24,887 nucleotides of DNA, taken from assembly GCA_044866005.1 (NCBI GenBank), contig JBIOTN010000195.1, positions 1 through 24,887 of the forward strand, in the 5' to 3' direction. Origin of the DNA: Candidatus Rokuibacteriota bacterium. GTDB taxonomy: Bacteria > Methylomirabilota > Methylomirabilia > Rokubacteriales > DASRDR01. The notes under the pieces were generated by a model, which was not told the DNA's origin, searched no databases, and was given only the letters and a program-made list of their open reading frames with translations. This document shows positions 3,654-21,494 of the stretch, piece by piece (position 1 is the stretch's first letter; every line of letters starts with the position of its first letter). Made by a program: the position numbers and the translations under genes.

Positions 3654-4238
3654 GAGCCCGCGCCCACTCCTTCACACTCCGGCGCGCGAAGGGCCAAGCT
3701 CTTCGCGAGGAGGAAGTCATGCTGCGTCGCGTAGACACTCACGTGAGGGTGATTCCTCTGATGGCGACTCGCGTGCCGGCTCATATGGCGACCACAGGAA
3801 TCCACCTGGTGCGCGGCGTCCCCCGCGCCCTTCCGGCGGGGGAGGGGCAGTTTCGCAGATTCGAATGCCATCCCGGCTTCGGGAAAGGAAGCCAGCATCC
3901 GGGGACTCCAAGATTTCCCGGTCGCACGGCTGCACGACGGCGACGGCGCAGAGCGCGATGAGGTAGGAGCCGTGTAGGGAAGGTGAAGTTCGGGAGTTCA
4001 CGATGCTCTGCGCCGACTCTGTCTCGGTGGAAGAGGAATGTTATGCCGGGCATCCAAGGAGGTTCCATGCGGCCTACCGATCTGGCCGGACTCCAATAAG
4101 CACGTCACCCCGCAATTCTATCTTCGCGGGTTTCGTGATCCGCGACAATCGGGAGGCGGCTATCCGCACGGTTGAGATGCGACACCGCCTGGAGGAAGCG
4201 ACCCCTAGCAGAAGCGTCAGTAGGGCGGCTGACACACG

Positions 4239-4754
4239 ATGAATGGTGCACAACGTAGGCATTGTGCCTCGGTGCTCCTTATTGTCGCGTCGATCCTGTG
4301 GTGGCATCGCTGGGTTCCGGCGCTTCTTTTGGCTGGGGTCGTGTCGTGGGCAATCCTCCACAGACGGCTCGAGGGGAATCTAGGCAGAATTCTGGGTCGC
4401 CTGTGGCGGCGGGCATGGCCGCCAAGAACCATTGCGCTGATTCCACTGCTCTCGGGCGGCACGCTCGCGTACTGGGTTACGGACGAACCCATCGCGCCGA
4501 AGGTCTTGCCGATCGCGCTCAACATAGTGGCGCTGTCGATCATGTTGTTCGGCGACTGGTGGACGTTGGCCGCTCACCCTCGGCGCTTCTGGACGGCAGG
4601 AAGGAGGGCCTGTCGGGTCCGTCGCGCGAAGTCTCAGTGGCCGGGTCCTGCGTACGCCCTGTCGCGATTGGCCGGCGCTGAGGCCGGAACAGATGCCGAG
4701 GCCAACTCGTTCATACCCGGCGTTGGGGCATCCGCGGAGACGGCCGGCCGTTGA
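4239..4754 (+). CDS. Possible 171-aa integral membrane protein, lying in the low-GC segment.
   Basis: Three hydrophobic helices are visible (ASVLLIVASILWWHRWVPALLLAGVVSWAIL; TIALIPLLSGGTLAYWV; VLPIALNIVALSIMLFGDWWTLAA). There is no Shine-Dalgarno sequence. Codon GC3 is lower than in neighbouring genes. Confidence 0.25.
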   Translation: MNGAQRRHCASVLLIVASILWWHRWVPALLLAGVVSWAILHRRLEGNLGRILGRLWRRAWPPRTIALIPLLSGGTLAYWVTDEPIAPKVLPIALNIVALSIMLFGDWWTLAAHPRRFWTAGRRACRVRRAKSQWPGPAYALSRLAGAEAGTDAEANSFIPGVGASAETAGR

Positions 4755-5261
4755 CGGCGACGCCACCGCCCGGATGTTCAAAGCCGAATGAGCTGACAAA
4801 ATCTGGAGCAAAGAGGCCGGATGCGGCCCACACTCGGGTCCTATGACGCAACGGCTACGATGCGTCATCCGGGGTAAGCCGCGTTCGAATGGGTACTCTG
4901 GACCGGACAAGCCAATAGCGCCGGCCACCATCATCCCTTCCGTCTGGCGCTTCGTGGTTGGAGCAGACACGCGCGAGGATCTGCGAATTGATGGGGCGGC
5001 GACAGGTAGAGAGGTTCACGCTGCCCCTGGGATCTTCCGATGCTTGCCCGGCTCCGTTTGATCCCCGCCCACGATAGCGCGCTCACCCCTCTCGTGCTGG
5101 GGCAAACGCTCAGTACCGAAGGAGGAACACGAAGTCCAATGCGGGTCCCTTCCACAATTCAAAGCGCGCCCCCGCAACCATACAAGGGTCAGGTTGGAAG
5201 CATAGGCTTGCCGCCACCGCAAAACTATGGGTCAAGTCACCCGGGCACCGCAAACCGGGGC

Positions 5262-5302
5262 TTGACAGGCTTCCCGGCAGTTTAGTATTCATTAAATATA
5301 GT
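5262..5302 (+). promoter_or_regulatory. Candidate promoter of the molybdoenzyme/box operon: -35 TTGACA (5262-5267) with weak -10 candidates TATTCA or TATAGT downstream.
   Basis: Consensus -35 hexamer 65 nt upstream of the GTG start at 5332. The -10 assignment is ambiguous. Confidence 0.3.
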
Positions 5303-5331
5303 TCACCTGGCCTAAACTCAGCTTTCGGGGT

Positions 5332-5817
5332 GTGCCGGTGCGCCAGCTCCTGTCGCTCAAGGTCAACGGCGAGACGTTCCAGGTCGCCGTGCCGGTCCAC
5401 AAGACGTTGCTCGAGGTCCTGCGCGAGGATCTCGGGTTGACCGGGACCAAGCACGGCTGCGAGCTCGGCGAGTGCGGGACGTGCACCGTGCTGGTGGACG
5501 GCCAGCCCGTCCTCTCCTGTCTCGCCCTCCCGATCGAGCACCAGGACGCCGAGATCCTGACCGTCGAGGGCATGAGCGGCCCGGGCGGCCTCCACCCGCT
5601 CCAGCAGGCGTTCGCCGAGCTGGGCGCCGCGCAGTGTGGCTACTGCACCCCGGGCATCCTGCTGACGGCCAAGGCCCTCCTCGAGGCCGCGCCGCGGCCG
5701 ACGCGCGACGGGATCCGGGCCGCGCTCGCCGGGAACCTCTGCCGCTGCACGGGCTACACGAAGATTCTGGACGCCGTGGAGCTGGCGGCCGGGCGGCTGG
5801 CTGCGCCGTGCCGATGA
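5332..5817 (+). CDS. [2Fe-2S]-binding small subunit of a xanthine-dehydrogenase-family molybdoenzyme (CoxS/HcrC-like).
   Basis: The 161-aa product carries a plant-type ferredoxin motif (GCELGECGTCTV) and a second cluster motif (QCGYCTPG...CRCTGY). GTG start. Confidence 0.9.
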   Translation: MPVRQLLSLKVNGETFQVAVPVHKTLLEVLREDLGLTGTKHGCELGECGTCTVLVDGQPVLSCLALPIEHQDAEILTVEGMSGPGGLHPLQQAFAELGAAQCGYCTPGILLTAKALLEAAPRPTRDGIRAALAGNLCRCTGYTKILDAVELAAGRLAAPCR

Positions 5818-5848
5818 CCGTCGGTTCTCGGCTCGGCGGGGGGGCGGG

Positions 5849-8278
5849 ATGATGGGCGCATCGCCCCCTCGCAACCTCGCCGTCGTCGGGAAGCCGCTCC
5901 CCAAGGTCGACGCCTGGGCCAAGGTGACCGGCGAGACGAAGTACGCGGACGACCTCTTCCTCTCGCGGATGGCGTACGCGAAGATCCTCCGGGCCCAGCA
6001 CCCCCACGCCCGCATCCGCGGGATCGACACGCGCCGGGCGGCCGCCGTGCCCGGCGTCTACGCCGTCCTCACCGGGAGCGACTTCGCGCCCGTGAAGTTC
6101 GGCATCCTGCCGGTCAGCCAGGACGAGGAGGCGCTCTGCCGCGAGAAGGTGCGCTACGTGGGCGACCCGGTCGCGGCCGTGGCGGCGGTGGACGAGGAGA
6201 CGGCCGAGCGCGCCATGCACCTGATCGAGGTGGACTACGAGCCGCTGCCGCCCGTCATGTCGATCGACCAGGCTCTCGCCGGCGGGAGCCACCGCATCCA
6301 CGAGTACGGCGACGGCCACAACATCCACAAGCTGGTCTCCCTCGAGTTCGGCGACGTCGAGGAGGGGTTCCGCGCCGCCGACCTCGTCCGCGAGGACGTC
6401 TTCTTCTTCGAGGGGAACACGCACCTGCCGATGGAGCAGCACGCGGCCGTCGCGCAGTGGAGCCCGGAGGGGAAGCTGACCCTGTGGTCCTCGACCCAGA
6501 CGCCGCATTACGTCCACCGGGCCCTCGGCAAGGTGCTGGGGCTGCCCATGAGCCACATCCGGGTCATCGCGACGCCGAACGGCGGCGGCTTCGGCGGGAA
6601 GTCCGATCCGTTCAGCCACGAGCTCGTCGTGGCGCGGCTGGCCCAGCGGATCGGCCGGCCGGTGAAGACCACGCTCACCCGCGAGGAGGTCTTCTACGCC
6701 CACCGCGGGCGCCATCCGGTCCTCATGTGGATCCGGAGCGGCGTGAGGATGGACGGCGAGATCCTGGCGATCCACTTCCGCTCCTACCTCGACGGCGGCG
6801 CCTACGGCTCGTACGGCGTGGCCTCGACCTTCTACACCGGCGCGCTCCAGACGGTCACCTACAAGGTGCCGCGCTACAAGTTCGAGGGCTGCCGCGTCTT
6901 CACGAACAAGCCCCCCTGCGGCCCGAAGCGCGGCCACGGCACCCCGCAGCCTCGCTTCGCGCTGGAAGTCCACCTCGACAAGGTCGCCGCGGAGCTCGGC
7001 CTCGACCCGGCGGAGATGCGGCGCCGACACGCCGTGGACGAGCACACGAAGACGGTGAACCACCTCACGATCACGACGTCGGGGCTGCGCGAATGCCTCG
7101 ACCGGGTCGTCGCCGCGTCCGGCTGGCGGGAGAAGTTCGGACGGCTGCCCGGCGGCCGCGGGATCGGCCTCGCCGCCTCCTCGTACATCTCGGGCGCGGG
7201 CCTGCCGATCTACTGGAACGACATGCCCCATTCCGGCGTCATGGTGAAGCTCGACCGCGGCGGCGGCGTCGCGGCCTTCTGCGGCTCCATCGACATCGGG
7301 CAAGGCTCGGACTCGATCCTGGCCTACGTCGTCGCGGAAGTGCTGGGCATCCGGCCCGAGGACATCCGCGTGGTGACGGCCGACACGGACCTGACCCCCG
7401 TGGACCTCGGCTCCTACTCCTCGCGCGTGACGCTCATGAGCGGTAACGCGGCGAAGGAGGCGGCCGAGAAGCTGCGCGGGCTGCTCCTCGACGTCGCGGC
7501 GAAGAAGCTCGAGGTCTCGCCCGCGGACCTCGAAGCGCGGGACCGCCGGATCTTCGTGCGCGAGGACCCGGGGAGGGGGCTGGCCTTCGACGAGGCGGCG
7601 CGGCTGGCCGAGGCCGCGTACGGGACGCTCGTCGCCGCGGGCTCTTACACGCCGCCGAAGCGCGCCGCCCGGTTCAAGGGCGCGGGCGTGGGGCCCACCC
7701 CCGCCTACTCCTACTCGGCGTGCGTCGTCGAGCTCGCGGTGGACCGGGAGACGGGGGAGATCCGCATCGAGCGGATCTGGATCGCCCACGACGGGGGGAC
7801 GGCGATCAACCCCCTCCTCGTCGAGGGGCAGGTCGAGGGCTCGGTGTACATGGGGCTCGGCGAGGCGGTGATGGAGGAGCAAGTGTTCCGGCACGGGCTC
7901 CACAAGATCCCCTCGATGCTCGAGTACAAGAGCCCGACGACGCTCGAGACGCCCGAGATCACGACCTTCCTCGTCCAGACCCACGACCCCGAGGGTCCGT
8001 TCGGCGCGAAGGAGGCGGGGCAGGGTCCGCTCCTGCCGGTGATCCCGGCGATCGCCAACGCGGTCCACGACGCCGTCGGCGTGCGGATCGACGAGATCCC
8101 CATCACGCCGGAAAAGATCCTCAAGGCCTTCGACCTCCGGGCCCAGGGCCGGCCGGCCCGGGTCGGCCCCGAGCGGCTGCCGGACGTCGCGTTCCCGGAT
8201 CCCATCCGCGTGCCGCCGCCCTGGGTGGACCCGGAGGGCCGCGCCGCCACGGCCGTCCACGGACGGGCGAAGTCCTGA
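5849..8278 (+). CDS. Molybdopterin-binding large subunit of the same enzyme (HcrA/CoxL-like), 809 aa.
   Basis: N-terminus reads KPLPKVDAWAKVTGETKYADD. Also present are NGGGFGGKSD, the AhYVHRALG region, and the C-terminal aldehyde-oxidase/XDH a/b-hammerhead and MoCo domains. Confidence 0.9.
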   Translation: MMGASPPRNLAVVGKPLPKVDAWAKVTGETKYADDLFLSRMAYAKILRAQHPHARIRGIDTRRAAAVPGVYAVLTGSDFAPVKFGILPVSQDEEALCREKVRYVGDPVAAVAAVDEETAERAMHLIEVDYEPLPPVMSIDQALAGGSHRIHEYGDGHNIHKLVSLEFGDVEEGFRAADLVREDVFFFEGNTHLPMEQHAAVAQWSPEGKLTLWSSTQTPHYVHRALGKVLGLPMSHIRVIATPNGGGFGGKSDPFSHELVVARLAQRIGRPVKTTLTREEVFYAHRGRHPVLMWIRSGVRMDGEILAIHFRSYLDGGAYGSYGVASTFYTGALQTVTYKVPRYKFEGCRVFTNKPPCGPKRGHGTPQPRFALEVHLDKVAAELGLDPAEMRRRHAVDEHTKTVNHLTITTSGLRECLDRVVAASGWREKFGRLPGGRGIGLAASSYISGAGLPIYWNDMPHSGVMVKLDRGGGVAAFCGSIDIGQGSDSILAYVVAEVLGIRPEDIRVVTADTDLTPVDLGSYSSRVTLMSGNAAKEAAEKLRGLLLDVAAKKLEVSPADLEARDRRIFVREDPGRGLAFDEAARLAEAAYGTLVAAGSYTPPKRAARFKGAGVGPTPAYSYSACVVELAVDRETGEIRIERIWIAHDGGTAINPLLVEGQVEGSVYMGLGEAVMEEQVFRHGLHKIPSMLEYKSPTTLETPEITTFLVQTHDPEGPFGAKEAGQGPLLPVIPAIANAVHDAVGVRIDEIPITPEKILKAFDLRAQGRPARVGPERLPDVAFPDPIRVPPPWVDPEGRAATAVHGRAKS

Positions 8279-8366
8279 TGCCCTCTCACGAGGTGGCAGG
8301 CCGGTGGGGGGGTCTGGGGGAGGAGCGTCGGTGGCTCCCCCCCGGCCGGAAGGAGCCGCCGCGGCG

Positions 8367-9407
8367 ATGATGCGGCTCCCGCCGTTCACGTATCTGGCGC
8401 CCCGGCGCCTCGACGAGGCGGTGCGCCTGCTCGCCGAGCACGGCGCCCACGCGATGGTCGTCGCCGGCGGGACCGACCTCTACCCGAACATGAAGCGGCG
8501 CCAGTTCGAGCCCCAGGTGCTCGTGGGGCTCCGCGGCCTGCGCGATCTCGCGGGGATCGCCGGGAGCGCACGGGACGGGCTGCGGATCGGCGCCGCCGCC
8601 ACGCTCACGCAGGTGGCGGAGCACCCGGAGGTCGCGACGTACTATCCCGCCCTGGCCCGCGCCGCGGGCGTCGTCTCCACCCCGCAGCTCCGCAACATGG
8701 GGACCCTCGGCGGGAACGTCTGCGTGGACACGCGCTGCAACTACTACAACCAGTCCTACGAGTGGCGGAAGGCGATCGGCTTCTGCATGAAGAAGGACGG
8801 GGACATCTGCCTGGTCGCCCCCGGCAGCCCGCGCTGCTGGGCGGTCTCCTCCTCGGACACGGCGCCGGTGCTGTGGACGCTCGGCGCGGACGTGACGCTC
8901 GTGGGTCCGGCTGGCGAGCGGCGACTGCCGATCCGCGCGCTCTACCAGGACGACGGCATCCAGTACCTCCGCAAGGCGCCCGAGGAGATCCTGACCGAGC
9001 TTCGCCTGCCGCCGGTGGACGGCTGGCGGGCGACCTACTGGAAGCTCCGCCGGCGGGGCGCCTTCGACTTCCCGGTGCTCGGGGTCGCCGCGGCGGTCCG
9101 GCTGGAGGGCGACGTCTGCCGCGAGGCCCGCATCGTGCTCGGTGCGGTGGCGTCCGAGCCGCGGGAGTCGGCCGACGCCGCGCGCTGCCTGGTCGGCGAG
9201 CGGCTCACGCCCGAGGTGATCGCGCGCGCCGCCGAGGCTGCGGCGCGGCCGTCCAAGCCGCTCGACAACACGGACATGGTCTACCACTACCGGAAGCGGA
9301 TGACGCGGGTCTACGTCGGTCGCGCGCTCCGCGAGCTGGCGGGCCTGCCCATCGACGGCCTCTGGCCGTCGGGCATGAGCGCCCGCGCCATCGAGGAGCG
9401 GAGCTGA
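8367..9407 (+). CDS. FAD-binding medium subunit with an inserted four-Cys loop. This is the architecture of the 4-hydroxybenzoyl-CoA reductase beta subunit (HcrB).
   Basis: PCMH FAD domain (MVVAGGTDLYPNMK...). Cys-rich insertion CVDTRCNYYNQSYEWRKAIGFCMKKDGDICLVAPGSPRCW with spacing C-x15-C-x7-C-x8-C. Start taken at MMRLPPF, which has an AAGGAG 10 nt upstream. Confidence 0.85.
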   Translation: MMRLPPFTYLAPRRLDEAVRLLAEHGAHAMVVAGGTDLYPNMKRRQFEPQVLVGLRGLRDLAGIAGSARDGLRIGAAATLTQVAEHPEVATYYPALARAAGVVSTPQLRNMGTLGGNVCVDTRCNYYNQSYEWRKAIGFCMKKDGDICLVAPGSPRCWAVSSSDTAPVLWTLGADVTLVGPAGERRLPIRALYQDDGIQYLRKAPEEILTELRLPPVDGWRATYWKLRRRGAFDFPVLGVAAAVRLEGDVCREARIVLGAVASEPRESADAARCLVGERLTPEVIARAAEAAARPSKPLDNTDMVYHYRKRMTRVYVGRALRELAGLPIDGLWPSGMSARAIEERS

Positions 9408-9411
9408 GGCG

Positions 9412-11091
9412 ATGAGCCTAGTGGGCGAGCCGGAGCGCACCGTGGTCGACTTCCGGACGGAGCCCGCCCGGTACCGGCACTGGACGCTCACCCTCGACGG
9501 CCGGGTGGCGACGCTCGCCATGGACGTCCAGGAGGACGGCGGGATCCGGCCCGGGTACGAGCTCAAGCTGAACTCCTACGACCTCGGGGTGGACATCGAG
9601 CTCGCCGACGCCGTCCAGCGCCTTCGGTTCGAGCACCCGGAGGTGGGCGCGGTCGTCGTGACGTCCGGGAAAGAGCGCGTCTTCTGCGCCGGGGCGAACA
9701 TCCGGATGCTCGGGCAGTCCAGCCACGCCTGGAAGGTGAACTTCTGCAAGTTCACCAACGAGACGCGGAACGCGATCGAGGAGGCGACCGCGGAGTCGCG
9801 GCAGACCTACCTCTGCGCGGTGGCGGGCGCCTGCGCCGGCGGCGGCTACGAGATCGCGCTGGCCACCGACTGGATCGTCATGGCCGACGACGGGAACACC
9901 GCGGTGTCGCTCCCCGAGGTCCCGCTCCTCGGCGTGCTGCCCGGGACGGGCGGGCTCGTGCGGCTGGTGGACAAGCGGAAGGTCCGGCGCGACCGCGCCG
10001 ACTTCTTCTGCACGGTCGAGGAGGGGGTCAAGGGCCAGCGCGCGCTCGACTGGGGCCTCGTCGACGAGCTGGTTCCCCGCTCGCGCCTCGCGGACGCGGC
10101 CCGGCGGCGGGCCGCGGAGCTGGCGGAGCGGAGCGACCGTCCGGCCGGCGCGCGCGGCATCCGGCTCACGCCGCTCGACCGGACGCTGGAGAACGATCGG
10201 ATCGCCTACCCGCACGTCGTGTGCGAGCTGGATCGCGGAGGAAACCGGGCCGAGATCACGATCACCGGGCCGGAGGCTCCGCCGCCGGCCGACCCGGCAG
10301 GCGTCCACGGCCTGGGGTGCGCGTTCTGGCCGCTGGCGGTCGCCCGCGCGCTCGACGACCTGATCCTCCACCTGCGCGTCAACGAGGAGGCCATCGGCGT
10401 CTGGGTCTTCCGCACGGTCGGCCGCGGCGACCTCGTCGAGGCCTACGACCGCCTGCTGGCGGCCCACGCCGCGGACTGGCTCGTCCGGGAGATCCGCCTC
10501 TACCTGCGCCGGACGCTCAAGCGTCTCGACGTCTCCTCGCGCTCCCTCGTGGCCCTCGTCGAGCCCGGCTCGTGCTTCGTCGGGACGCTGTTCGAGCTGG
10601 CCCTCGCCGCCGACCGGAGCTACATGCTGGAGGGGACCCGGGAGGGCGATGACCGGCCGCCGGCGGTGGTCCGGCTCGGCGAACTCAACTTCGGCGCCTA
10701 CCCGATGCCGAACGGCCTCACGCGGCTCCAGGGCCGGTTCCTGGGGGAGCCCGGCCGCGTGGACGAGCTGCGGGCGCGCCTCGGCGAGGAGCTCGACGCG
10801 GCCGCGGCCGACAAGGTCGGCCTCGTGACCTTCACCCCCGACGACATCGACTGGGACGACGAGGTGCGGATCGCCCTCGAGGAGCGCGCGGCGCTCTCGC
10901 CCGACGCCCTGACCGGCATGGAGGCCTCCCTCCGGTTCGGCGGCCCCGAGACCCAGGAGAGCAAGATCTTCGGCCGCCTCTCGGCCTGGCAGAACTGGAT
11001 CTTCCAGCGGCCGAACGCGGTCGGGGAGAAGGGCGCGCTGCGCGTCTACGGCAGCGGGCAGCGCGCCGAGTTCGATCGGAGGAGGGCCTGA
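9412..11091 (+). CDS. boxC: Benzoyl-CoA-dihydrodiol lyase / 2,3-epoxybenzoyl-CoA dihydrolase (BoxC), a crotonase-superfamily enzyme of 559 aa.
   Basis: Length and N-terminal motifs match BoxC (GYELKLNSYDLGVDIELADAVQRLRFEHPEV..VVTSGKERVFCAGANI; KVNFCKFTNETRN; LPEVPLLGVLPGTGGLVRLVDKRKVRRD). The start lies 4 nt after the stop of the preceding gene. Confidence 0.85.
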   Translation: MSLVGEPERTVVDFRTEPARYRHWTLTLDGRVATLAMDVQEDGGIRPGYELKLNSYDLGVDIELADAVQRLRFEHPEVGAVVVTSGKERVFCAGANIRMLGQSSHAWKVNFCKFTNETRNAIEEATAESRQTYLCAVAGACAGGGYEIALATDWIVMADDGNTAVSLPEVPLLGVLPGTGGLVRLVDKRKVRRDRADFFCTVEEGVKGQRALDWGLVDELVPRSRLADAARRRAAELAERSDRPAGARGIRLTPLDRTLENDRIAYPHVVCELDRGGNRAEITITGPEAPPPADPAGVHGLGCAFWPLAVARALDDLILHLRVNEEAIGVWVFRTVGRGDLVEAYDRLLAAHAADWLVREIRLYLRRTLKRLDVSSRSLVALVEPGSCFVGTLFELALAADRSYMLEGTREGDDRPPAVVRLGELNFGAYPMPNGLTRLQGRFLGEPGRVDELRARLGEELDAAAADKVGLVTFTPDDIDWDDEVRIALEERAALSPDALTGMEASLRFGGPETQESKIFGRLSAWQNWIFQRPNAVGEKGALRVYGSGQRAEFDRRRA

Positions 11092-12527
11092 TGGCCCCGG
11101 AGCGGACGATCGACTACGCCGAGCGGATCCCGAACAACGTCGGTCTGGCGGACAACCGCCGCCTGCTCCGGGCCCTCGAGGACTGGCAGCCGAAGTTCCT
11201 CCAGTGGTGGCACGAGATGGGGCCGGAGGGCTTCCAGGCCAAGGAGACGTACCTGCGGACCGCGGTGAGCGTCGACGCGCAGGGCTGGGCCCACTTCGAC
11301 TACGTCCGGATGCCCGACTACCGCTGGGGGATCTTCCTCGCCGAGGCCCAGCCCGGGCGGCTCGTCAACTTCGGCGCGCACAAGGGGCAGCCGGCCTGGC
11401 CGGACGTGCCGGGCGAGTACCGGGGCGTGCTCCGGCGCCTCATCGTCACCCAGGGGGATACCGAGCCCGCGTCGGTCGAGCAGCAGCGCCATCTCGGCCG
11501 GACCTGCCCGTCGCTCTACGACCTGCGCAACCTCTTCCAGGTCAACGTGGAAGAAGGCCGACACCTCTGGGCGATGGTCTACCTCCTCCACGCGCACTTC
11601 GGCCGCGACGGACGCGAGGAGGCGGAGGCGCTCCTCCAGCGCCGCTCGGGTGACCAGGACAAGCCGCGCATCCTGGGCGCCTTCAACGAGCGGACGCCCG
11701 ACTGGCTGGCCTTCTTCATGTTCACCTACTTCACGGACCGCGACGGCAAGTATCAGCTCTGCGGCCTGGCGGAGAGCGGCTTCGATCCCCTCGCTCGCAC
11801 CTGCCGGTTCATGCTGACCGAGGAGGCCCACCACATGTTCGTGGGCGAGACGGGCATCGGCCGGGTGGTCCAGCGCACCTGCGAGCTGATGCGCGAGCAC
11901 CGGACCGACGACGTCCGGAAGCACGGCGGGATCGACCTCCCGACCCTCCAGAAGTACCTGAACTTCCACTACTCGGTCTCGCTCGACCTGTTCGGGTCGG
12001 AGGTCTCCACCAACGCCGCCAACTTCTACACGTTCGGCCTGAAGGGGCGCTTCGAGGAGACGAAGCACGACGACGACCACGTGCTCAAGGACGCGATCTA
12101 CCCGGTCCTGCGCCTGGACGACGGGCGACTCGTGCCCCGGGAGGAGCCCGCCCTCGTCGCGCTGAACGAGCGACTCCGCGACGACTTCGTCGCCGACAGC
12201 CAGCGCGGGGTGGACCGCTGGAACCGGATCATCACGAAGCACGGCATCGACTTCGAGCTGCACCTGCCGCACAAGGCCTTCCATCGGGCGATCGGAACCT
12301 TCGCCGGTGCCCGCGTGTCGCCCGGAGGGGACGTCCTCCCCGAGGCGGAGTGGCAGGCCCGGCGCGACGAGTGGCTGCCGACGCGCGAGGACGAGGCCTT
12401 CGTGGCGAGCCTCATGACGCCGGTCGTCGAGCCCGGCAAGTTCGCGAGCTGGATCGCGCCGCCGCCGCGCGGGATCAACGGCAAGTCGATCGACTTCGAG
12501 TACGTCCGGCTCCGCGAGGCCGATTGA
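11091..12527 (+). CDS. boxB: Benzoyl-CoA 2,3-epoxidase (oxygenase) component BoxB, a di-iron enzyme of 478 aa.
   Basis: N-terminus IDYAERIPNNVGLADNRRLLRALEDWQPKFLQWWHEMGPEGF matches BoxB. The ATGA start/stop overlaps boxC. Confidence 0.9.
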   Translation: MAPERTIDYAERIPNNVGLADNRRLLRALEDWQPKFLQWWHEMGPEGFQAKETYLRTAVSVDAQGWAHFDYVRMPDYRWGIFLAEAQPGRLVNFGAHKGQPAWPDVPGEYRGVLRRLIVTQGDTEPASVEQQRHLGRTCPSLYDLRNLFQVNVEEGRHLWAMVYLLHAHFGRDGREEAEALLQRRSGDQDKPRILGAFNERTPDWLAFFMFTYFTDRDGKYQLCGLAESGFDPLARTCRFMLTEEAHHMFVGETGIGRVVQRTCELMREHRTDDVRKHGGIDLPTLQKYLNFHYSVSLDLFGSEVSTNAANFYTFGLKGRFEETKHDDDHVLKDAIYPVLRLDDGRLVPREEPALVALNERLRDDFVADSQRGVDRWNRIITKHGIDFELHLPHKAFHRAIGTFAGARVSPGGDVLPEAEWQARRDEWLPTREDEAFVASLMTPVVEPGKFASWIAPPPRGINGKSIDFEYVRLREAD

Positions 12528-12737: not shown

Positions 12738-13292
12738 ATGAGCCTGGGCGCGCGGATCAAAGGGCTGCGGACGGATCGCGGGATCCGGCAGAACGAGCTG
12801 GCGCAGAAGGCCGGCCTCACCCCGAGCCTCGTCTCCCAGATCGAGTCCGGCAAGCTCACGCCGTCGGTCCACACCCTGGGCCGGCTGGCGGGGGCCCTCG
12901 GTGTCCCCATCGGCGCGCTCTTCGACCAGAGCCCGAACGGCCGCCTCCACATCGGACGGAAGCGGGACTACGCCGTGGTGAGCTTCGAAGGGTCCGGCGA
13001 TCGCTGGGAGGTCCTGGCGGCCGGCCTCTTCCGCGGCAAGGTCCGCGCCGTCGTCTCGAGCCTCCGCGGTCGCGGCAAGAGCGTGCCGCCCGAGCGCGTG
13101 CTGATCGAGCCGGGGCAGATGAAGCTGATGTACGTGCTCCAGGGCAAGGTGGCGCTCCACTACGCAGGCGAGCGCCACCTCATGGCGCCCGGCGACTCGG
13201 CGTACCTGGACGGGGGCGTGCCCCACACCTGGGAGAACGTCGGGGCCGCCGAGGCCCGCACGCTCTGGGTCATCACGGGAAAGGACGAGTGA
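12738..13292 (+). CDS. XRE-family HTH transcriptional regulator with a C-terminal cupin sensor domain.
   Basis: N-terminal HTH_3 (LRTDRGIRQNELAQKAGLTPSLVSQIESGK). C-terminal cupin (LIEPGQMKLMYVLQGKVALHYAGERHLMAPGDSAYLDGGVPHTWENVG). Confidence 0.8.
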   Translation: MSLGARIKGLRTDRGIRQNELAQKAGLTPSLVSQIESGKLTPSVHTLGRLAGALGVPIGALFDQSPNGRLHIGRKRDYAVVSFEGSGDRWEVLAAGLFRGKVRAVVSSLRGRGKSVPPERVLIEPGQMKLMYVLQGKVALHYAGERHLMAPGDSAYLDGGVPHTWENVGAAEARTLWVITGKDE

Positions 13293-13445: not shown

Positions 13446-14480
13446 CTAGTTACAGGGTTTGTGCAGCTGGATGTTCCCGCCCTTGAGCATGCCGCCCGCC
13501 GAATAGCCGCTGCTCAACGTGATGCTGAACGTGTCGGACCCTACGCCGGGCTCGCCGTTGTCCGCCACGTCGATGGCGTAGGTGAACCCGGAGGCGCCGT
13601 TGACCTCGGCGCTTCCCTCGAAGTGCCGGCTCGTGCTCGTGGCGCCGACATCGTAGGCGGTGACGCTCGTCCCCTTCACCTTCATGCCGGTCTCGTGGTC
13701 GATGTAGGTCACGTGTCCGGTGGCCACGATCGCGCCGTCCTTCATCCCGGCGTGGAGGCCGAAGTTCGCCCGGCTGCCGGTGCCGATCCAGCCGCCACCC
13801 GTGACGAAGTCGTGACAGGGCCCGGTCTCGACGGGCGGCACGCAGCTGATGTCACTCTTGGCGCTGGACAGGATCACCTCGGCCACGCCCGGCACGACGA
13901 GGTGGATCGCGTTGACCCGGATCTCGCGGAACGTCCCGTTCACGGTGGTCGTCTGCTCGTTGATGATGAGGGTCGCGACGCCGGGAATCGTGACCGTGTG
14001 GTTCGCGGGGAACCCCCCGGGAGGCACCTGGATGGTCTGACCTCCGAAGGTGAGCTCGGCGATTTCGGTCTCCCCGCTGACGCCGTCGCACCTCGCCTCT
14101 GATTCGGCGCGGACGAAGGAGGCGGTGACCTGCGCCGCGTGGCCGGGAAGCACGACCACGTTGGCCAGGGACGCCGAGCTCTCGGCCTTGCCGCTGCCGC
14201 CGCTCGTGGAGGCGGTCAGGACCTCGGCCCTCAGCACGGCGTCCAGCGTGGCGAGGTGGAGATCCCGGGTGTCGAGGAGCGCGTCGTTGCGGGCGCCGCC
14301 GCTCGGCGGGAGCTCACCCGTGTCCGAGAGGAACATCGGGCCCGTGAGAGCCGTGTTGACGAATGCCGCGAAGGCGCGCCCGCTGAAGGTCGTCGTCGCT
14401 TCAGCCGGGGCAAGCCAGGCGAGCCCCGAGAGCAGGAGCACGACGGCGGCGCACGGAAGCTTCAGGTGCCGGATTCTCAT
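13446..14480 (-). CDS. Secreted hypothetical protein (344 aa) with a cleavable signal peptide and a Thr/Gly/Val-rich beta-type sequence.
   Basis: Start chosen at the internal Met (MRIRHLKLPCAAVVLLLSGLAWLAPAEA), which has an AGGAGG site 7 nt upstream. The ORF upstream of that Met is unconvincing. Confidence 0.55.
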   Translation of the reverse strand: MRIRHLKLPCAAVVLLLSGLAWLAPAEATTTFSGRAFAAFVNTALTGPMFLSDTGELPPSGGARNDALLDTRDLHLATLDAVLRAEVLTASTSGGSGKAESSASLANVVVLPGHAAQVTASFVRAESEARCDGVSGETEIAELTFGGQTIQVPPGGFPANHTVTIPGVATLIINEQTTTVNGTFREIRVNAIHLVVPGVAEVILSSAKSDISCVPPVETGPCHDFVTGGGWIGTGSRANFGLHAGMKDGAIVATGHVTYIDHETGMKVKGTSVTAYDVGATSTSRHFEGSAEVNGASGFTYAIDVADNGEPGVGSDTFSITLSSGYSAGGMLKGGNIQLHKPCN

Positions 14481-14721
14481 GGTGGTCCTCCTATGGTCGA
14501 CTGTCCCGATTCCATCGCTGGCGCACTGGCAGGGCAAAAGCGCGGCCGTGGCCGATCCACGGCATCGGCTCACCCCCAAGGACGCGGGAAGACAGCGCTT
14601 TCGAAGATCTGGCCGCGGCGCGGTCGCCCGCGACCCGGCGCAGGAGCGCGGCACCCGCTAGGGCAGACGGCTTGTTTTCCGAGGACTTCGCGGTGCCGCG
14701 ACGGCGCGGCGGCGCTGGCGG

Positions 14722-16083: not shown

Positions 16084-16455
16084 CCGGGCCCTCCCGGAGG
16101 GGCGGCGGGGTGGACGCGTGGCCCCGTCCCGTGAAGGCATCGCCCCACCGTTGCCTGCAACAGTTAGCCGTTATTGTATTCAATCACCAATAATTAGCGA
16201 AAAGAAAAAAGGCGCCCCGGCGCGAGCCCGCGGGCTGCGGCCGTTCGGCGGTCCGGCGGCGCGGGCCGGGTGTCCCCCCGGGCGGGACGCCTCCCCGGGC
16301 CGGCCCGGGCGCCGGGCGCCGGCGCTGCACGGCCATCCACCGAGCTGCCGCGACCGAGGGCAGAGTCCATCGTGGCGAGCGCGTCCTTCTCCACGCCGGC
16401 CCGACCGGCTCGTCCGGAGTGGCTGTGCTACACTGCGATTCCACGAGGCGATGGC

Positions 16456-17817
16456 GTGCCGGCCGCGTTTCTCGACCCCGCCTTCTTCGATCGATCCTCC
16501 GAGACAGCGCCGGAGGAGCGCTTGCGCGCCCGCCAGTGGGAGCGCCTCGCGGCCGGCCTGCGCGAGGTGTGGGCGTCGAACCCCTTCTGGCGCGCGCGCC
16601 TGCACGCCGCCGGCCTCCGCGACGCGCGTGATCTCGCCTGCTGGGCCGATTTCGCCGCGCTTCCGCGCCTGACCAAGGCCGACCTCGTCCTCGACCAGGC
16701 CGCCCACCCGCCGTTCGGCACGAACCTCACCTATCCGCTCGACCGCTACGTCCGCCTCTTCCAGACCTCGGGCACGACCGGGCCGCCGCTCCGCTGGCTC
16801 GAGACCGACGACTCGTGGGCCTGGTGGGCCCGGTGCTGGGCCTTCGTCTACCGCGGGGCCGGCCTCGGGCCCGGGGACCGGATCTTCTTCCCATTCTCCT
16901 TCGGGCTCTTCGTCGGCTTCTGGGCCGGGCTGGAAGGGGCGCGCGCGCTGGGCGCGCTGGCGATCCCGGGCGGCGGCCAGGACTCGGCGACGCGGCTCCA
17001 CTGGATGCGGGAGCTCGGCGCCACGGCGCTCGTCTGCACGCCGTCCTACGCCCTCCATCTCGGCGAGGTGGCCGTGAGCCAGGGGTTCGAGCCCGCCAAG
17101 CTCGGGGTGCGGACGACGGTCCACGCCGGAGAGCCCGGCGCCGGGATCCCGGCCGTGCGGCAGCGGATCGAAGCGCTGTGGGGAGCCCGGGCGTTCGACC
17201 ACGCGGGGATGACCGAGGTCGGGGCCTACGGCTTCGCCTGCGGCGCGCAGGGCGGGCTCCACGTCAACGAGCTCGAGTTCATCGCCGAGGTGCTCGACCC
17301 GGACAGCGGCCGGCCCGTAGCCCCCGGAGAGATCGGGGAGCTCACGCTCACCAACCTCGGCCGCTGGGGCGCGCCCGTCCTGCGCTACCGCTCGGGTGAC
17401 CGCGTGCGCCTGGCCTCCGGGGCGTGCCCGTGCGGGCGGACGTTCATCGGCCTGGAGGGCGGGATCCTCGGGCGAGTGGACGACATGCTGATCGTCCGGG
17501 GCGTCAACGTGTTTCCCTCGGCGCTCGAGGGGATCGTGCGGGCGTTCGCGGCCGTGGACGAGTTCCAGATCGAGGTCTTCCGGCGGGGGGCCATGGACGA
17601 GGTGCGACTGCTGCTGGAGATCGACGGGACCGCGCACCCCTCCGACGCGGTGGGGCGGACGGTGCGAGACGTGGGCGAGGCGGTGCGCCGGGAGATCGGG
17701 ATCCGTGTGGACGTCGCCGCGGTCCCTGCCCGGAGCCTGCCGCGCTACGAGCTGAAGGCCCGCCGCGTCGTGCGGCGGAGAGACGAGGACGGCACGCGCA
17801 GCGAACCGACGGCGTAG
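16456..17817 (+). CDS. Phenylacetate-CoA-ligase (PaaK) family adenylate-forming enzyme, an aryl-CoA ligase of unknown substrate.
   Basis: PaaK-like N-terminal region (ERLRARQWERLAAGLREVWASNPFWRARL), the SGTTGPP P-loop, and a C-terminal VRGVNVFPS motif. The GTG start at 16456 is uncertain, and the ORF is open from 16270. Confidence 0.75.
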   Translation: MPAAFLDPAFFDRSSETAPEERLRARQWERLAAGLREVWASNPFWRARLHAAGLRDARDLACWADFAALPRLTKADLVLDQAAHPPFGTNLTYPLDRYVRLFQTSGTTGPPLRWLETDDSWAWWARCWAFVYRGAGLGPGDRIFFPFSFGLFVGFWAGLEGARALGALAIPGGGQDSATRLHWMRELGATALVCTPSYALHLGEVAVSQGFEPAKLGVRTTVHAGEPGAGIPAVRQRIEALWGARAFDHAGMTEVGAYGFACGAQGGLHVNELEFIAEVLDPDSGRPVAPGEIGELTLTNLGRWGAPVLRYRSGDRVRLASGACPCGRTFIGLEGGILGRVDDMLIVRGVNVFPSALEGIVRAFAAVDEFQIEVFRRGAMDEVRLLLEIDGTAHPSDAVGRTVRDVGEAVRREIGIRVDVAAVPARSLPRYELKARRVVRRRDEDGTRSEPTA

Positions 17818-18037: not shown

Positions 18038-18592
18038 ATGGAGAAGACGGCGCTCTTGATCATCGACGCCCAGCAGGAGTACTTCGCCCCCCTCGGCAAG
18101 CTCGTCTTGCCCGACGGCCCGAAAGCCGTCGCACGGATCAGCCAGGCGCTCGAGTGGGCCCGCGCGCGCGACGTGCCGGTGTTCCACGTCGTGCACGAGA
18201 GCCGCCGGCCCGGCGCGACGATCTTCGTGCCCGGCAGCCCGGCGCTGGAGATCCATCCCGCGGTGCGTCCCGCGCCGGGCGAGCCCGTGATCCGGAAGCA
18301 CCTGCCGGGCTCGTTCACCGACACGCCGCTCGAGACGGAGCTCCGGAAGCGCGGTGTCGAGCGGGTCATCGTCTCGGGCTTCATGACCCAGATGTGCTGC
18401 GACACGACGACGCGGGAGGCGGCGCACCGAGGCTTCAAGGTGACCCTGCTCGCCGACGCCACCGCGGCCATGGACGTGAAGGCGCCCGACGGTGAGCTGA
18501 TCCCGCACGACCAGGTGCACCGGACGCACCTCGCGAGCCTGAACGGCTTCCTCGCGGAGGTGAAGCGCACGGACGAAGTCACGGGCGCGTGA
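18038..18592 (+). CDS. Isochorismatase-family cysteine hydrolase.
   Basis: ALLIIDAQQEYF starts the sequence. The catalytic region VIVSGFMTQMCCDTT is present. The protein is 184 aa. Confidence 0.8.
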   Translation: MEKTALLIIDAQQEYFAPLGKLVLPDGPKAVARISQALEWARARDVPVFHVVHESRRPGATIFVPGSPALEIHPAVRPAPGEPVIRKHLPGSFTDTPLETELRKRGVERVIVSGFMTQMCCDTTTREAAHRGFKVTLLADATAAMDVKAPDGELIPHDQVHRTHLASLNGFLAEVKRTDEVTGA

Positions 18593-20259
18593 GCGGGGAG
18601 ACCGCGAGGGTGGCGAGCGCGACGGGCGTGGGCGCGTGGCCGGACGCGCCGGTCACCTACCAGGACGTCCCCGAGCAGTTCAACATGGCCACCGTGCTCG
18701 TGGACCGCCACCTCGCCGCGGGGCGCGGGGCGCGGCCCGCGATCCTCACGCCCGACGGCGCTCTCTCCTACGCGGCGGTCGGCGCCGGCGTCGCGCGCGC
18801 GGCGCACCTGCTGGCGCGCCTGGGCGTGCGGCGCGAGCAGCGGGTCGCGATCCTCCTGCCCGACTCCCCCGAGTTCGTCTACGTCTTCCTGGGCGCGATG
18901 AAGGCCGGCATGGTCCCCGTGCCCCTCTCCACGCTCGGCACGCCCGAGGACTACGACTACATGCTCCGGGACAGCCGGGCCGTCGCCCTGGTGGTCCATC
19001 GCGGGGTGGTTCGGGGCGTGGCGCAGCCGGGCAGTGCCCTGGCCGGCCTTTACGAGCGGGTCGAGCCCGTCTGGCGTGCGGTTCCGACGCTCGCCAACTG
19101 TCTCGTCGTGGGAGAGGCCCCGCCCGGCACGCTGCCGTTCGCCGCCGCGCACGCGGCGGAGGCCGAGGGCTTCGACGCCGTCCCCACCCACCGGGACGAC
19201 ATGGCCTACTGGCTCTATTCCTCGGGGACCACGGGCCGGCCGAAGGCGATCGTGCACCTCCACCACGACATGCTCTTCTGCGTGGAGCCCTACGCCCGCC
19301 ACGTCCTCCGGCTCACCGCGGAGGACCGGACGTTCGGCGTCCCGCGCCTCTTTTTCTCGTTCGGGCTCACCTCGTGCCTCTACCTACCGTTCTCCGTCGG
19401 CGCCTCCACCGTCCTCGTCGCCGAGCGACCTGATCCCGCCCGGGTGTTCGAGCTGTGCTCAAGGTTGCGCCCCACCATCTTCTTCTCGGTGCCAACCTTC
19501 TACGCGGCCCTCCTCCGCGACGCGGAGACGACCGCGCCCGACCTCTCCTCGCTCCGCCTCTGCGTCTCGGCCGGCGAGCCGCTGCCCGCGCCGCTCTACG
19601 AGCGGTGGGTCAGGCGGACCGGCGTCGAGTGCCTGGACGGCCTCGGCGCCACCGAGGTCGGCTACATCTACATCTCGAACCGGCCGGGCGCCGTCCGCCC
19701 CGGCTCCTCGGGGCAGCTCCTGCCGGGCTTTCGGGCGCGCGTCCAGGACGCCCAGGACCGCGAACTGCCGCCCGGCGCCGTGGGGGAGCTCTGGATGTCC
19801 GGCGAATCGGTCGCCGCGGGCTACTGGAACAAGCACGACAAGACCAAGGCGGCGTTCGTCGGGGAGTGGTTCCGGACCGGCGACCGGTACCGCGTGGACC
19901 CCGACGGCTACTACTTCTACGAGGGCCGCGCCGACGACCTCATGCGGGTCGGCGGGAACTGGGTCTCGCCGCTCGAGGTGGAATCGTGCCTGCTCGAGCA
20001 CCCGGCCGTGGCGGAGTGCGCCGTGGTCGGGGCCCGCGACGCCGATGGGCTCGAGAAGCCGCGCGCGTACGTCGTGCTGCGTCCCGGCGCGGCCGCCGCG
20101 GGACTCGAGGACGCGCTGCGCGCCCACGCCAAGACGCGGCTCCAGCCGTTCAAGGCGCCGCGCTGGGTGACGGTGGTCGCCGAGCTTCCGAAGACGGCCA
20201 CCGGCAAGGTGCAGCGCTATCGCCTCCGCGCCGGCTCCACCGGGCCGGAGGTGGTATAG
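18589..20259 (+). CDS. Benzoate-CoA-ligase-family AMP-dependent synthetase, a candidate (hydroxy)benzoate-CoA ligase.
   Basis: FNMATVLVDRHLAAGRGARPAIL is the benzoate-CoA ligase N-terminal signature. AMP-binding motif YSSGTTGRPKAIVHLHHD. The GTG start overlaps the upstream stop (GTGA). Confidence 0.85.
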   Translation: MSGETARVASATGVGAWPDAPVTYQDVPEQFNMATVLVDRHLAAGRGARPAILTPDGALSYAAVGAGVARAAHLLARLGVRREQRVAILLPDSPEFVYVFLGAMKAGMVPVPLSTLGTPEDYDYMLRDSRAVALVVHRGVVRGVAQPGSALAGLYERVEPVWRAVPTLANCLVVGEAPPGTLPFAAAHAAEAEGFDAVPTHRDDMAYWLYSSGTTGRPKAIVHLHHDMLFCVEPYARHVLRLTAEDRTFGVPRLFFSFGLTSCLYLPFSVGASTVLVAERPDPARVFELCSRLRPTIFFSVPTFYAALLRDAETTAPDLSSLRLCVSAGEPLPAPLYERWVRRTGVECLDGLGATEVGYIYISNRPGAVRPGSSGQLLPGFRARVQDAQDRELPPGAVGELWMSGESVAAGYWNKHDKTKAAFVGEWFRTGDRYRVDPDGYYFYEGRADDLMRVGGNWVSPLEVESCLLEHPAVAECAVVGARDADGLEKPRAYVVLRPGAAAAGLEDALRAHAKTRLQPFKAPRWVTVVAELPKTATGKVQRYRLRAGSTGPEVV

Positions 20260-20469: not shown

Positions 20470-21494
20470 AGTGCCGGAAGTGCGGCAGCCGCGCCGTGCT
20501 GGAGCTCAGGCGGCACAACCTCGCGCTCTGCGGGGAGGATTTCATCGGCTTCTTCCGCCACCACACGCTCGAGACCGTGCGGCGCTGGAAGATGTTCACG
20601 CCGGACGACCGACTGCTCGTGGCGGTGTCGGGGGGCAAGGACTCGCTGGCCCTCTGGGACGTGCTGCACGGCGCCGGGTACCGGACGGCCGGCCTCTACA
20701 TCGACCTCGGCATCTTCGACTACTCGCGCGAGTCGAAGGCCCGGTGCCAGGCGTTCGCCGCCGAGCGGGGCGTCCCTCTCCTCGTCGCCTCCGTGGCCGA
20801 CGAGGTCGGCGCCGGCATTCCCCGCGTCAAGGAGGTCACGCGGCGACCCACGTGCTCGGCGTGCGGACTCTCCAAGCGTTACATCATGAACCGGGCGGCG
20901 CTGGAGGGCGGGTTCACCGTCCTCGCCACGGGCCACAACCTCGACGACGAAGCCGCGACGCTGTTCGGCTCGACGCTGCGCTGGGACGAGTCCGCCCTGG
21001 CCCGACAGACGCCCGTGCTCGAGGCGACCCACCCCAAGCTCGTCCGGCGGGTCAAGCCGCTCTTCCGCACGAGTGAGCGCGAGACCGCGGCGTACGCCTT
21101 TCTGCGCGGCATCGACTACATCGTCGAGGAGTGTCCGTTCGCGCGCGGCGCGACCTCCATCGCGCACAAGGAGACCCTGAACCGGCTGGAGGACGCCTCC
21201 CCGGGCGCGAAGGCGACCTTCTTCCTGAACTACCTGGAGCATGGCCGTCACCGCTTCCAGGCGGGCGAATCGGTGGACCTGCGGGAGTGCGCGCGCTGCG
21301 GCCAGACGACGACGGGCGAGGTCTGCGCGTTCTGCAAGCTCGCCGATCACGTCCGCCGCGCGATGCCCGCGCCGGGCCCGGCAGGGGCGACCGCGCCGAC
21401 GGGGTCGGCGGTGCCCGCCGGAGCGGACGACCCGGAGCCGCTCCGCGGTCTGATCTCGGACCTGACCGCGGCCACCGAGATTCACGCGCCCTGA
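20465..21494 (+). CDS. TtuA/NcsA-family PP-loop ATPase (Fe-S-dependent 2-thiolation enzyme).
   Basis: N-terminal zinc finger (VKCRKCGSRAVLELRRHNLALCGEDF). PP-loop (AVSGGKDSLAL). Candidate Fe-S ligands (CSAC...EECPF). C-terminal zinc finger (CARCGQTTTGEVCAFC). The GTG start overlaps the ThiS-like stop (GTGA). Confidence 0.8.

Follow-up and report, generated by a model that had tools for sequence, protein, structure and literature searches.

A divergent molybdenum enzyme with an HcrB-type cysteine loop, a candidate aroyl-CoA reductase, is encoded together with boxC and boxB in a Rokubacterial contig

The stretch of DNA analysed here (the window) comprises 24,887 nucleotides (nt) of contig JBIOTN010000195.1, from assembly GCA_044866005.1 of a Candidatus Rokuibacteriota bacterium, and positions given below refer to it unless a locus is named. 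It encodes a three-subunit molybdenum enzyme from the xanthine-oxidase family, whose flavin adenine dinucleotide (FAD)-binding β-subunit bears a cysteine-rich loop of the type present in HcrB, the β-subunit of 4-hydroxybenzoyl-coenzyme A (CoA) reductase (4-HBCR) from Thauera aromatica. The loop itself was already known; what is new here is the enzyme that carries it, a divergent variant. Judged by its sequence, this enzyme is not a canonical 4-HBCR, and belongs instead to a large uncharacterised sister clade, referred to below as the Gln clade. With moderate confidence, we propose that it is a cytoplasmic γαβ aroyl-CoA reductase with a [4Fe-4S] loop, most likely dehydroxylating 4-hydroxybenzoyl-CoA and feeding the aerobic Box pathway, of which two genes lie immediately downstream.

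The gene for the β (medium) subunit is housed in an open reading frame on the forward strand spanning positions 8304–9407. The homologues all begin at the sequence MMRLPPF, which corresponds to the ATG codon at 8367, and a ribosome-binding site (AGGAG) is found 8–12 nt upstream of this codon, so that the gene is taken to run from 8367 to 9407 and to encode 346 amino acid residues with the Pfam domains FAD_binding_5 and CO_deh_flav_C. Counted from the initiating methionine of this frame, cysteine residues are found at positions 119, 124, 140, 148, 157, 251 and 274. The first five follow the pattern C-x4-C-x15-C-x7-C-x8-C, and the codon positions bear out exactly both the numbering of the original prediction and its placing of the motif at 8721–8837. 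FAD_binding_5 is matched by residues 6–215, that is, by 210 residues against 167 profile positions, an excess of 43. When the β-subunit was compared with all PDB chains using phmmer, the medium subunits CoxM, CutM, NdhF and QorM, together with those of glyceraldehyde oxidoreductase and of Rhodobacter capsulatus xanthine dehydrogenase (XdhA), each gave a two-piece alignment. Because these loop-less subunits stop at residue 119 or 120 and resume at about residue 162, the insert can be defined as residues 120–161 (positions 8724–8849), which makes it 42 residues long, close to the 40 or so first estimated. CoxM/CutM, XdhA/XdhB, NdhF and QorM share the FAD_binding_5 and CO_deh_flav_C fold with the window subunit (TM-score 0.66–0.69, query-normalised) but have neither insert nor cluster; in place of the continuous FAD domain of such cluster-free subunits, the window protein has its 42 extra residues at that exact spot. 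The claim that ordinary CoxM and XdhA medium subunits lack the loop is therefore upheld by these controls.

The closest PDB match to the whole β-subunit was that of T. aromatica 4-HBCR (1rm6_B, E = 4e-61), well beyond anything expected by chance, in an alignment free of gaps across the loop. Cys119, Cys124, Cys140, Cys148 and Cys157 pair in it with HcrB Cys117, Cys122, Cys138, Cys146 and Cys155, and the last four of these HcrB residues, the very ones named in the original prediction, are just those that we take to be the cluster ligands, on the strength of the sequence of the PDB chain and the pattern of conservation. HcrB was also the first-ranked Foldseek match (1rm6_B, E = 2.4e-25) to an AlphaFold2 model of the window β-subunit. 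Used alone as the query, the loop region matched only three PDB families: HcrB (E = 3e-23, ungapped, with 24 of 43 motif positions identical), the medium subunit of a Methylobacillus aldehyde oxidase (5y6q_B) and Escherichia coli PaoB (5g5g_B). The loops of the last two can be aligned only with gaps, have the different pattern C-x9/11-C-x8-C-x18-C, and coincide with the window sequence only at the first (TRC) and last cysteines, which is why the loop is assigned specifically to the HcrB type, and its original identification as this known feature is correct at the level of sequence. T. aromatica HcrCAB (PDB 1RM6/1SB3; TIGR03193–03195) likewise has three subunits, encoded in the same gene order, its FAD subunit has an insert of 42 residues at the corresponding point, and the flank DTRC-x-[FY]YNQS..WR is common to HcrB and the window protein as well as the cysteine spacing.

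Conservation of the loop was followed in 120 close homologues of the β-subunit among the matches listed, and in 85 fetched loci that include two canonical HcrB genes. All 120 homologues match the motif GGNxC-x4-C-x15-C-x7-C-x8-C exactly, as do 68 of the 85 loci, and the HcrB proteins of Sedimenticola and Aquabacterium have it in identical form. The other 17 loci have GGNLLLDTRC, with leucine in place of Cys119 (codon 8721–8723), while the remaining four cysteines and their spacing are unchanged; Cys124, Cys140, Cys148 and Cys157 (codons 8736–8738, 8784–8786, 8808–8810 and 8835–8837, respectively) are thus invariant and identically spaced throughout both samples. Cys119 also has no equivalent in PaoB or 5Y6Q_B, and is probably not a ligand, in keeping with the earlier picture of four ligands and a spare fifth cysteine. 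The loci with leucine at this position (L046, L048, L051, L054, L060, L061, L063–L066, L068–L072, L080 and L083) amount to a natural experiment on a dispensable cysteine. The four invariant cysteines of the insert are predicted to be the ligands of a [4Fe-4S] cubane in the vicinity of the FAD.

Upstream of the β gene lie those for the other two subunits, so that the order γ-α-β (5332–9407) is the canonical order of hcrCAB, and the whole three-subunit set of a 4-HBCR is present. The γ (small) subunit of 161 residues (5332–5817, forward strand) matches Pfam Fer2 and Fer2_2 and has eight cysteines in the canonical pattern for two [2Fe-2S] clusters (Cys43/48/51/63 and Cys102/105/137/139); it starts at the conserved core, without a leader or a twin-arginine translocation (Tat) signal. 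The α (large) molybdopterin subunit of 809 residues (5849–8278, forward strand) matches Pfam Ald_Xan_dh_C, MoCoBD_1 and MoCoBD_2 and the α-subunit of T. aromatica 4-HBCR (1rm6_A, E = 9e-197), and it retains the motifs STQ, GGGFGGK and RGHG. Identity to the canonical subunits is 38–42% for β, 44% for α and 53% for γ. The best NCBIfam model for both α and β is clearly the 4-HBCR equivalog, while γ ties with related models. At the C-terminus of the α-subunit (8140–8278) there is a proline- and arginine-rich extension, reaching about 45 residues past the end of T. aromatica HcrA (809 versus 769 residues).

In one respect the active site of the α-subunit departs from that of its relatives. The motif FGAKEAGQGPLL bears Gln725 (codon CAG, 8021–8023, forward strand) opposite Glu726 of T. 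aromatica HcrA, which corresponds to Glu1261 of bovine xanthine oxidase. The same column is occupied by Glu869 in the aldehyde oxidoreductase of Desulfovibrio gigas, and by glutamate in nicotinate dehydrogenase, Mycobacterium smegmatis CoxL and 6-hydroxypseudooxynicotine dehydrogenase. In the xanthine-oxidase family the conserved glutamate activates the Mo-OH group for hydroxylation (PMC10420851), and it is present in nearly all of 150 cluster representatives from an exhaustive HMMER search. Glutamine was found in 73 of 77 α sequences from loci related to the window, the other four not matching the motif pattern, and likewise in box-linked loci sampled independently. Since the STQ, GGGFGGK and RGHG motifs are intact, the molybdenum site looks functional, though not like a conventional hydroxylase site. 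As far as can be judged from sequence, replacement of the general base by glutamine argues for a non-hydroxylating, reductive role, and it fits an enzyme that no longer needs a hydroxylase base.

The γ-α-β genes are translationally coupled to boxC and boxB, the five genes together occupying 5332–12527. The start codon of boxC (9412–11091, forward strand; TIGR03222, 910 versus 712 bits), for 2,3-epoxybenzoyl-CoA dihydrolase, lies 4 nt past the β stop codon, and the boxC stop codon overlaps (ATGA) the start of boxB (11091–12527, forward strand; TIGR03225, 866 versus 499 bits), which encodes the diiron subunit of benzoyl-CoA 2,3-epoxidase. Two ligase genes follow on the same strand and are syntenic in relatives, one for a PaaK-like aryl-CoA ligase (16270–17817; Pfam AMP-binding_C_2, under the PaaK cut-offs) and the other for a benzoate-CoA ligase family protein (18589–20259; TIGR02262, 568 versus 375 bits). 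About 33 genome loci, most of them from Rokubacteria, share the order γ-α-β-(regulator)-boxC-boxB-ligase-ligase; the regulator, which in the window is encoded at 12738–13292 on the forward strand, has an XRE-type helix-turn-helix and a cupin domain (Pfam HTH_3 and Cupin_2), and its position is conserved in about 30 loci. No boxD was found in the window or in the approximately 33 syntenic loci, nor is there in the Rokubacteria-type loci any candidate aldehyde dehydrogenase for the BoxD step. A literature search on an hcr-box operon, on benzoyl-CoA metabolism in Rokubacteria and on a link to furoyl-CoA dehydrogenase returned nothing relevant beyond one SAR324 genome report, which lists BoxB, BoxC and '4-HBCR' without BoxD.

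The proposed assignment of the enzyme as an aroyl-CoA reductase draws on HcrB and HcrA being by far its best relatives of solved structure, and the proposal that it feeds the Box pathway is supported by the tight coupling to boxC-boxB and the two ligases, which recurs in a different order in an independent BoxB lineage. By analogy with 4-HBCR, we infer both the donor and the direction of electron flow: a one-electron donor, ferredoxin or similar, would reduce the surface [4Fe-4S] cluster of the loop, from which electrons would pass to FAD, then to the two [2Fe-2S] clusters of γ, and finally to the molybdenum-molybdopterin cytosine dinucleotide site of α. One or other of the neighbouring ligases would supply the most likely substrate, 4-hydroxybenzoyl-CoA, and reductive dehydroxylation of this para-hydroxy aroyl-CoA at the molybdenum site would give benzoyl-CoA, ready for epoxidation by the co-transcribed BoxB and ring opening by BoxC.

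Several observations weigh against this proposal. All three subunits fall short of the NCBIfam equivalog cut-offs for 4-HBCR: β scores 294.8 against 404.55 bits (TIGR03195), α 901.7 against 994.55 (TIGR03194) and γ 180 against 257.8 (TIGR03193), while HcrB of Sedimenticola (460) and Aquabacterium (469) and Sedimenticola HcrA (1292) pass. In a neighbour-joining tree of 100 α-subunits, the Gln clade is monophyletic and includes the window sequence, with canonical HcrA on a branch of its own. Glutamate is present at the catalytic position in 119 of 120 canonical HcrA sequences and missing from the window α-subunit. The partner genes boxC and boxB are oxygen-dependent, and are not those of an anaerobic benzoyl-CoA reductase, whereas 4-HBCR is known from anaerobes as an enzyme that depends on ferredoxin and is sensitive to oxygen (PMC12771579). 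No benzoyl-CoA reductase gene was found in the window, and no ferredoxin-type CxxCxxCxxxC motif in any of its frames. Elsewhere, paaA and paaC, rather than box genes, adjoin the Gln-clade Hcr genes (L039:1115–6964, L048:14443–18008 and L051:11413–13929), and beside them 4-hydroxybenzoyl-CoA is a less obvious substrate. Finally, in the AlphaFold2 model of β (38-sequence alignment, no cofactors) the predicted local distance difference test score (pLDDT) averages 73.6 but is below 50 for residues 120–162, so that the model cannot show the geometry of the cysteines. Compared with T. aromatica HcrCAB, then, the window enzyme scores lower, lies in a separate α clade, has glutamine for Glu726 and is extended at the α C-terminus. 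The settings of the genes differ too: in Aquabacterium the canonical hcr genes lie near those for a class I benzoyl-CoA reductase (BcrAD/HGD-D) and a ferredoxin, where the window has boxC and boxB, although a PaaK-like ligase gene similar to that of the window adjoins them; in Sedimenticola they are followed by xdhC and a cytidylyltransferase gene. The label HcrB therefore suits the window protein for the type of loop and for the best match in sequence and in fold, but does not extend to equivalence with the canonical protein, given the scores, the separate α clade with its altered catalytic residue and the boxC/boxB neighbours.

The Gln clade is large. When one genome from each GTDB species was scanned, at least 600 relatives emerged; the best 80 share 58–88% identity with the window β-subunit and are distributed over Rokubacteria/Methylomirabilota, Chloroflexota, Acidobacteriota, Gemmatimonadota, Binatia, Myxococcota and two Thermoplasmata bins. 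Close relatives are named by NCBI only as 'FAD binding domain-containing protein', and by JGI as 4-HBCR β. Four other β-subunits of the clade score 261–281 on TIGR03195, and the nearest outgroup of the clade in the α tree is a glutamate-bearing sequence. Two of the loci (L076 and L081) have Gln-clade γ-α-β genes on contigs binned as Thermoplasmata/Methanomassiliicoccales archaea, which reflects either horizontal transfer or an error of binning.

The genes that accompany the clade are varied. In three loci (L052:3615–4802, L043:3714–4979 and L008:7098–8213) a BoxB-like diiron protein, shorter than BoxB and with 36% identity to it, as well as a weak match to Pfam PaaA_PaaC, is encoded beside the Gln-clade genes, and in L008 and L052 a crotonase gene lies alongside; the two proteins may constitute an uncharacterised aryl-CoA epoxidase/hydrolase pair. 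In the three loci with paaA and paaC, these genes are divergent (about 25% identity to E. coli PaaA); L039 has paaD too, and both L039 and L048 have a gene for an aldehyde dehydrogenase. No gene for the reductase PaaE was found at these three loci. Other neighbours of the Gln-clade genes include CoA-transferases and an HpaB/AbfD-like gene, both seen in Acidobacteriota, as well as IclR regulators and Liv-type transporters, and in roughly half of the Gln-clade loci no gene for an epoxidase lies close by.

The relationship of these genes to boxA was assessed in two samples. BoxA is an FAD- and [4Fe-4S]-containing electron-transfer protein encoded beside boxB; it has no sequence homology to the genes of the window, and no molybdenum subunit. 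With BoxA from the canonical boxC-boxB-boxA cluster of Mycetohabitans as the reference, neither the window nor any of 83 Hcr-anchored loci yielded a homologue, and the same was true of PaaE. In a second sample, of 80 metagenome loci anchored on BoxB instead, boxA directly follows boxB in 35 and Gln-clade Hcr genes are present in seven; in neither sample do BoxA and the Hcr-like genes occur together beside boxB. An independent BoxB lineage (L126, L150, L158 and L148) has the order boxC-boxB-(paaK-like)-γ-α-β, the PaaK-like ligase gene intervening in L148 and L158 and γ-α-β directly following boxB in L126 and L150, so that the Hcr-like genes occupy the canonical position of boxA; all four of these loci have an aldehyde dehydrogenase gene, upstream. 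Hcr-like genes joined box clusters on at least two occasions and in differing arrangements, which supports a functional link without indicating its kind. In the BoxB tree the Hcr-linked boxB genes are nested in lineages that lack boxA anyway, and this shared ancestry explains why the two are mutually exclusive. Neither boxA nor Hcr genes were found within 10 kb on each side of boxB in nine loci (L097, L098, L104, L105, L108, L109, L112, L156 and L157), nor near boxB of Nonomuraea (L087), which together represent several deep lineages of BoxB.

It is less likely, though well worth consideration, that an enzyme of the same architecture and with the same loop catalyses some other reaction. This could be the reductive removal of a 2-hydroxy, amino or halo group from an aroyl-CoA or, as a variant that shares the same probability, the deoxygenation of 2,3-epoxybenzoyl-CoA or 1,2-epoxyphenylacetyl-CoA produced by the neighbouring diiron epoxidases, as a 'safety valve'. 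The separation of the clade from canonical HcrA, the missed cut-offs and the altered catalytic residue all favour such a shift, as does the proximity of Gln-clade genes to three types of aryl-CoA epoxidase (BoxB, the BoxB-like protein and PaaA/PaaC) and, in Acidobacteriota, to the CoA-transferases and the HpaB/AbfD-like gene. No particular alternative substrate is directly indicated, however; the nearest characterised enzyme is 4-HBCR, and genes for a benzoate-CoA ligase family protein and a PaaK-like ligase accompany the canonical clade and the Gln clade alike. A wider proposal, that the Gln clade consists not of 4-HBCRs but of a new class of molybdenum enzyme working in oxygen-exposed bacteria with diiron aryl-CoA epoxidases (BoxB, BoxB-like and PaaAC), and either replacing BoxA/PaaE as their source of electrons or deoxygenating toxic epoxides at a molybdenum site that no longer has the hydroxylase base, is in our view doubtful. 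That the complex serves as the redox partner of BoxB in place of BoxA, with electrons leaving through FAD and the [4Fe-4S] cluster to the diiron centre, is unlikely. In such a scheme the electrons might come from the aldehyde product of BoxC, oxidised at the molybdenum site, so that BoxD would be replaced as well. The lack of BoxA and PaaE homologues in the Hcr-anchored loci and the distribution in the BoxB-anchored ones are as this scheme would predict; γ-α-β sits in the usual place of boxA in L126 and L150, and BoxA and the β-subunit have a similar set of cofactors. Against it stand the ancestry of the Hcr-linked boxB genes, the loci (the nine, and Nonomuraea) that do without either partner, the aldehyde dehydrogenase genes that accompany the Hcr-like genes in the independent lineage, the lack of an epoxidase near about half of the clade, and Gln725 itself, which speaks against aldehyde or hydroxylase chemistry at molybdenum. 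A role as substitute for BoxA was accordingly kept only as a minority reading, and substitution for BoxD was rejected as the main one.

It was originally suggested that the loop is what allows the enzyme to run as a low-potential reductase rather than as a hydroxylase, and, as worded, this is not supported. PaoB of the E. coli PaoABC complex (5G5G) and the Methylobacillus aldehyde oxidase (5Y6Q) also have four cysteines in an insert at this point of the FAD domain, and in the PaoB type the insert is reported to hold a [4Fe-4S] cluster (PMC13404670). These enzymes are oxidative and retain the catalytic glutamate, and PaoABC is periplasmic. Conversely, the urolithin C dehydroxylase Ucdh/UcdCFO from Enterocloster, a xanthine-oxidase-family member that reductively dehydroxylates a phenol para to a carbonyl (PMC12771579, PMC11760930), lacks the loop, takes its electrons from NADH and retains the glutamate. 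With an oxidative enzyme that has a related loop, and a reductive one that has none, the loop alone does not set the direction of catalysis in the xanthine-oxidase family. This raises the question of whether the window enzyme might itself act on a CoA thioester as a hydroxylase or aldehyde oxidoreductase, its insert a PaoB-like trait through which electrons from molybdenum reach an acceptor at the [4Fe-4S] cluster. PaoB and the Methylobacillus oxidase do combine an insert at this site with oxidative catalysis under air, and the gene neighbourhood is aerobic. The spacing of the cysteines (x15, x7, x8) is that of HcrB, however, and not that of PaoB (x9–11, x8, x18); the NCBIfam scores are far below the cut-offs for PaoC (285 against 1180) and PaoA (153 against 322); and, where PaoA carries a Tat signal, the small subunit here has none. 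Taken together with the change of the catalytic glutamate to glutamine, this makes an oxidative enzyme very unlikely. Least credible of all is the notion that the cysteines hold no cubane, and instead bind zinc, form disulfides or are purely structural. Occupancy of the cluster is admittedly deduced by homology, and the loop is of low confidence in the AlphaFold2 model, but the cysteines are spaced exactly as in a [4Fe-4S] site defined by crystallography, the DTRC..YNQS..WR flank is common to both, and the four cysteines are strictly conserved across phyla.

The proposal of an aroyl-CoA reductase feeding the Box pathway has consequences for the annotation of such genes. Those for 4-HBCR are taken to signal that phenolic compounds are degraded anaerobically, and a broad sister clade, one repeatedly wired into oxygen-dependent pathways through CoA epoxides, is now seen to have the HcrB-defining loop too. 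Should members of this clade dehydroxylate hydroxybenzoyl-CoA in oxic or micro-oxic settings, phenolic acids would enter the Box pathway by a hybrid route in soil phyla that are abundant and uncultured. Should their activity be another, a common annotation is wrong; and were the clade to prove a partner of epoxidases, most '4-HBCR' genes in soil metagenomes would have been misread as markers of anaerobic aromatic degradation.

The remainder of the window encodes, among other proteins, a sigma-54 activator, an isochorismatase-family protein and a thiolase. A consensus search found no sigma-54 promoter upstream of the operon, and Rfam and tRNA scans of the window gave no matches. The 1.4 kb immediately upstream of the operon (3900–5330) are of lower G+C content and have no clear coding signal, although a sigma-70-like element (TTGACA...TAGTAT) can be discerned at about 5263–5293, and a small membrane protein is possibly encoded at 4239–4754. 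Between the genes for the regulator and the sigma-54 activator, the reverse strand (13446–14654) encodes a 402-residue protein with choice-of-anchor P and post-COAP-1 domains, which this contig shares with its near-identical counterpart L001, from assembly GCA_044870165.1, and with none of the other syntenic loci. The benzoate-CoA ligase gene is followed by one for a TtuA-like tRNA 2-thiolation protein (20475–21494), with an uncertain start, as the coding frame changes near 20500. In some Rokubacteria loci a gene for a nitroreductase-family flavoprotein is inserted between the β gene and boxC (L005:11082–11846, and also L004 and L006), and a gene of the same family lies near the Hcr genes in L046.

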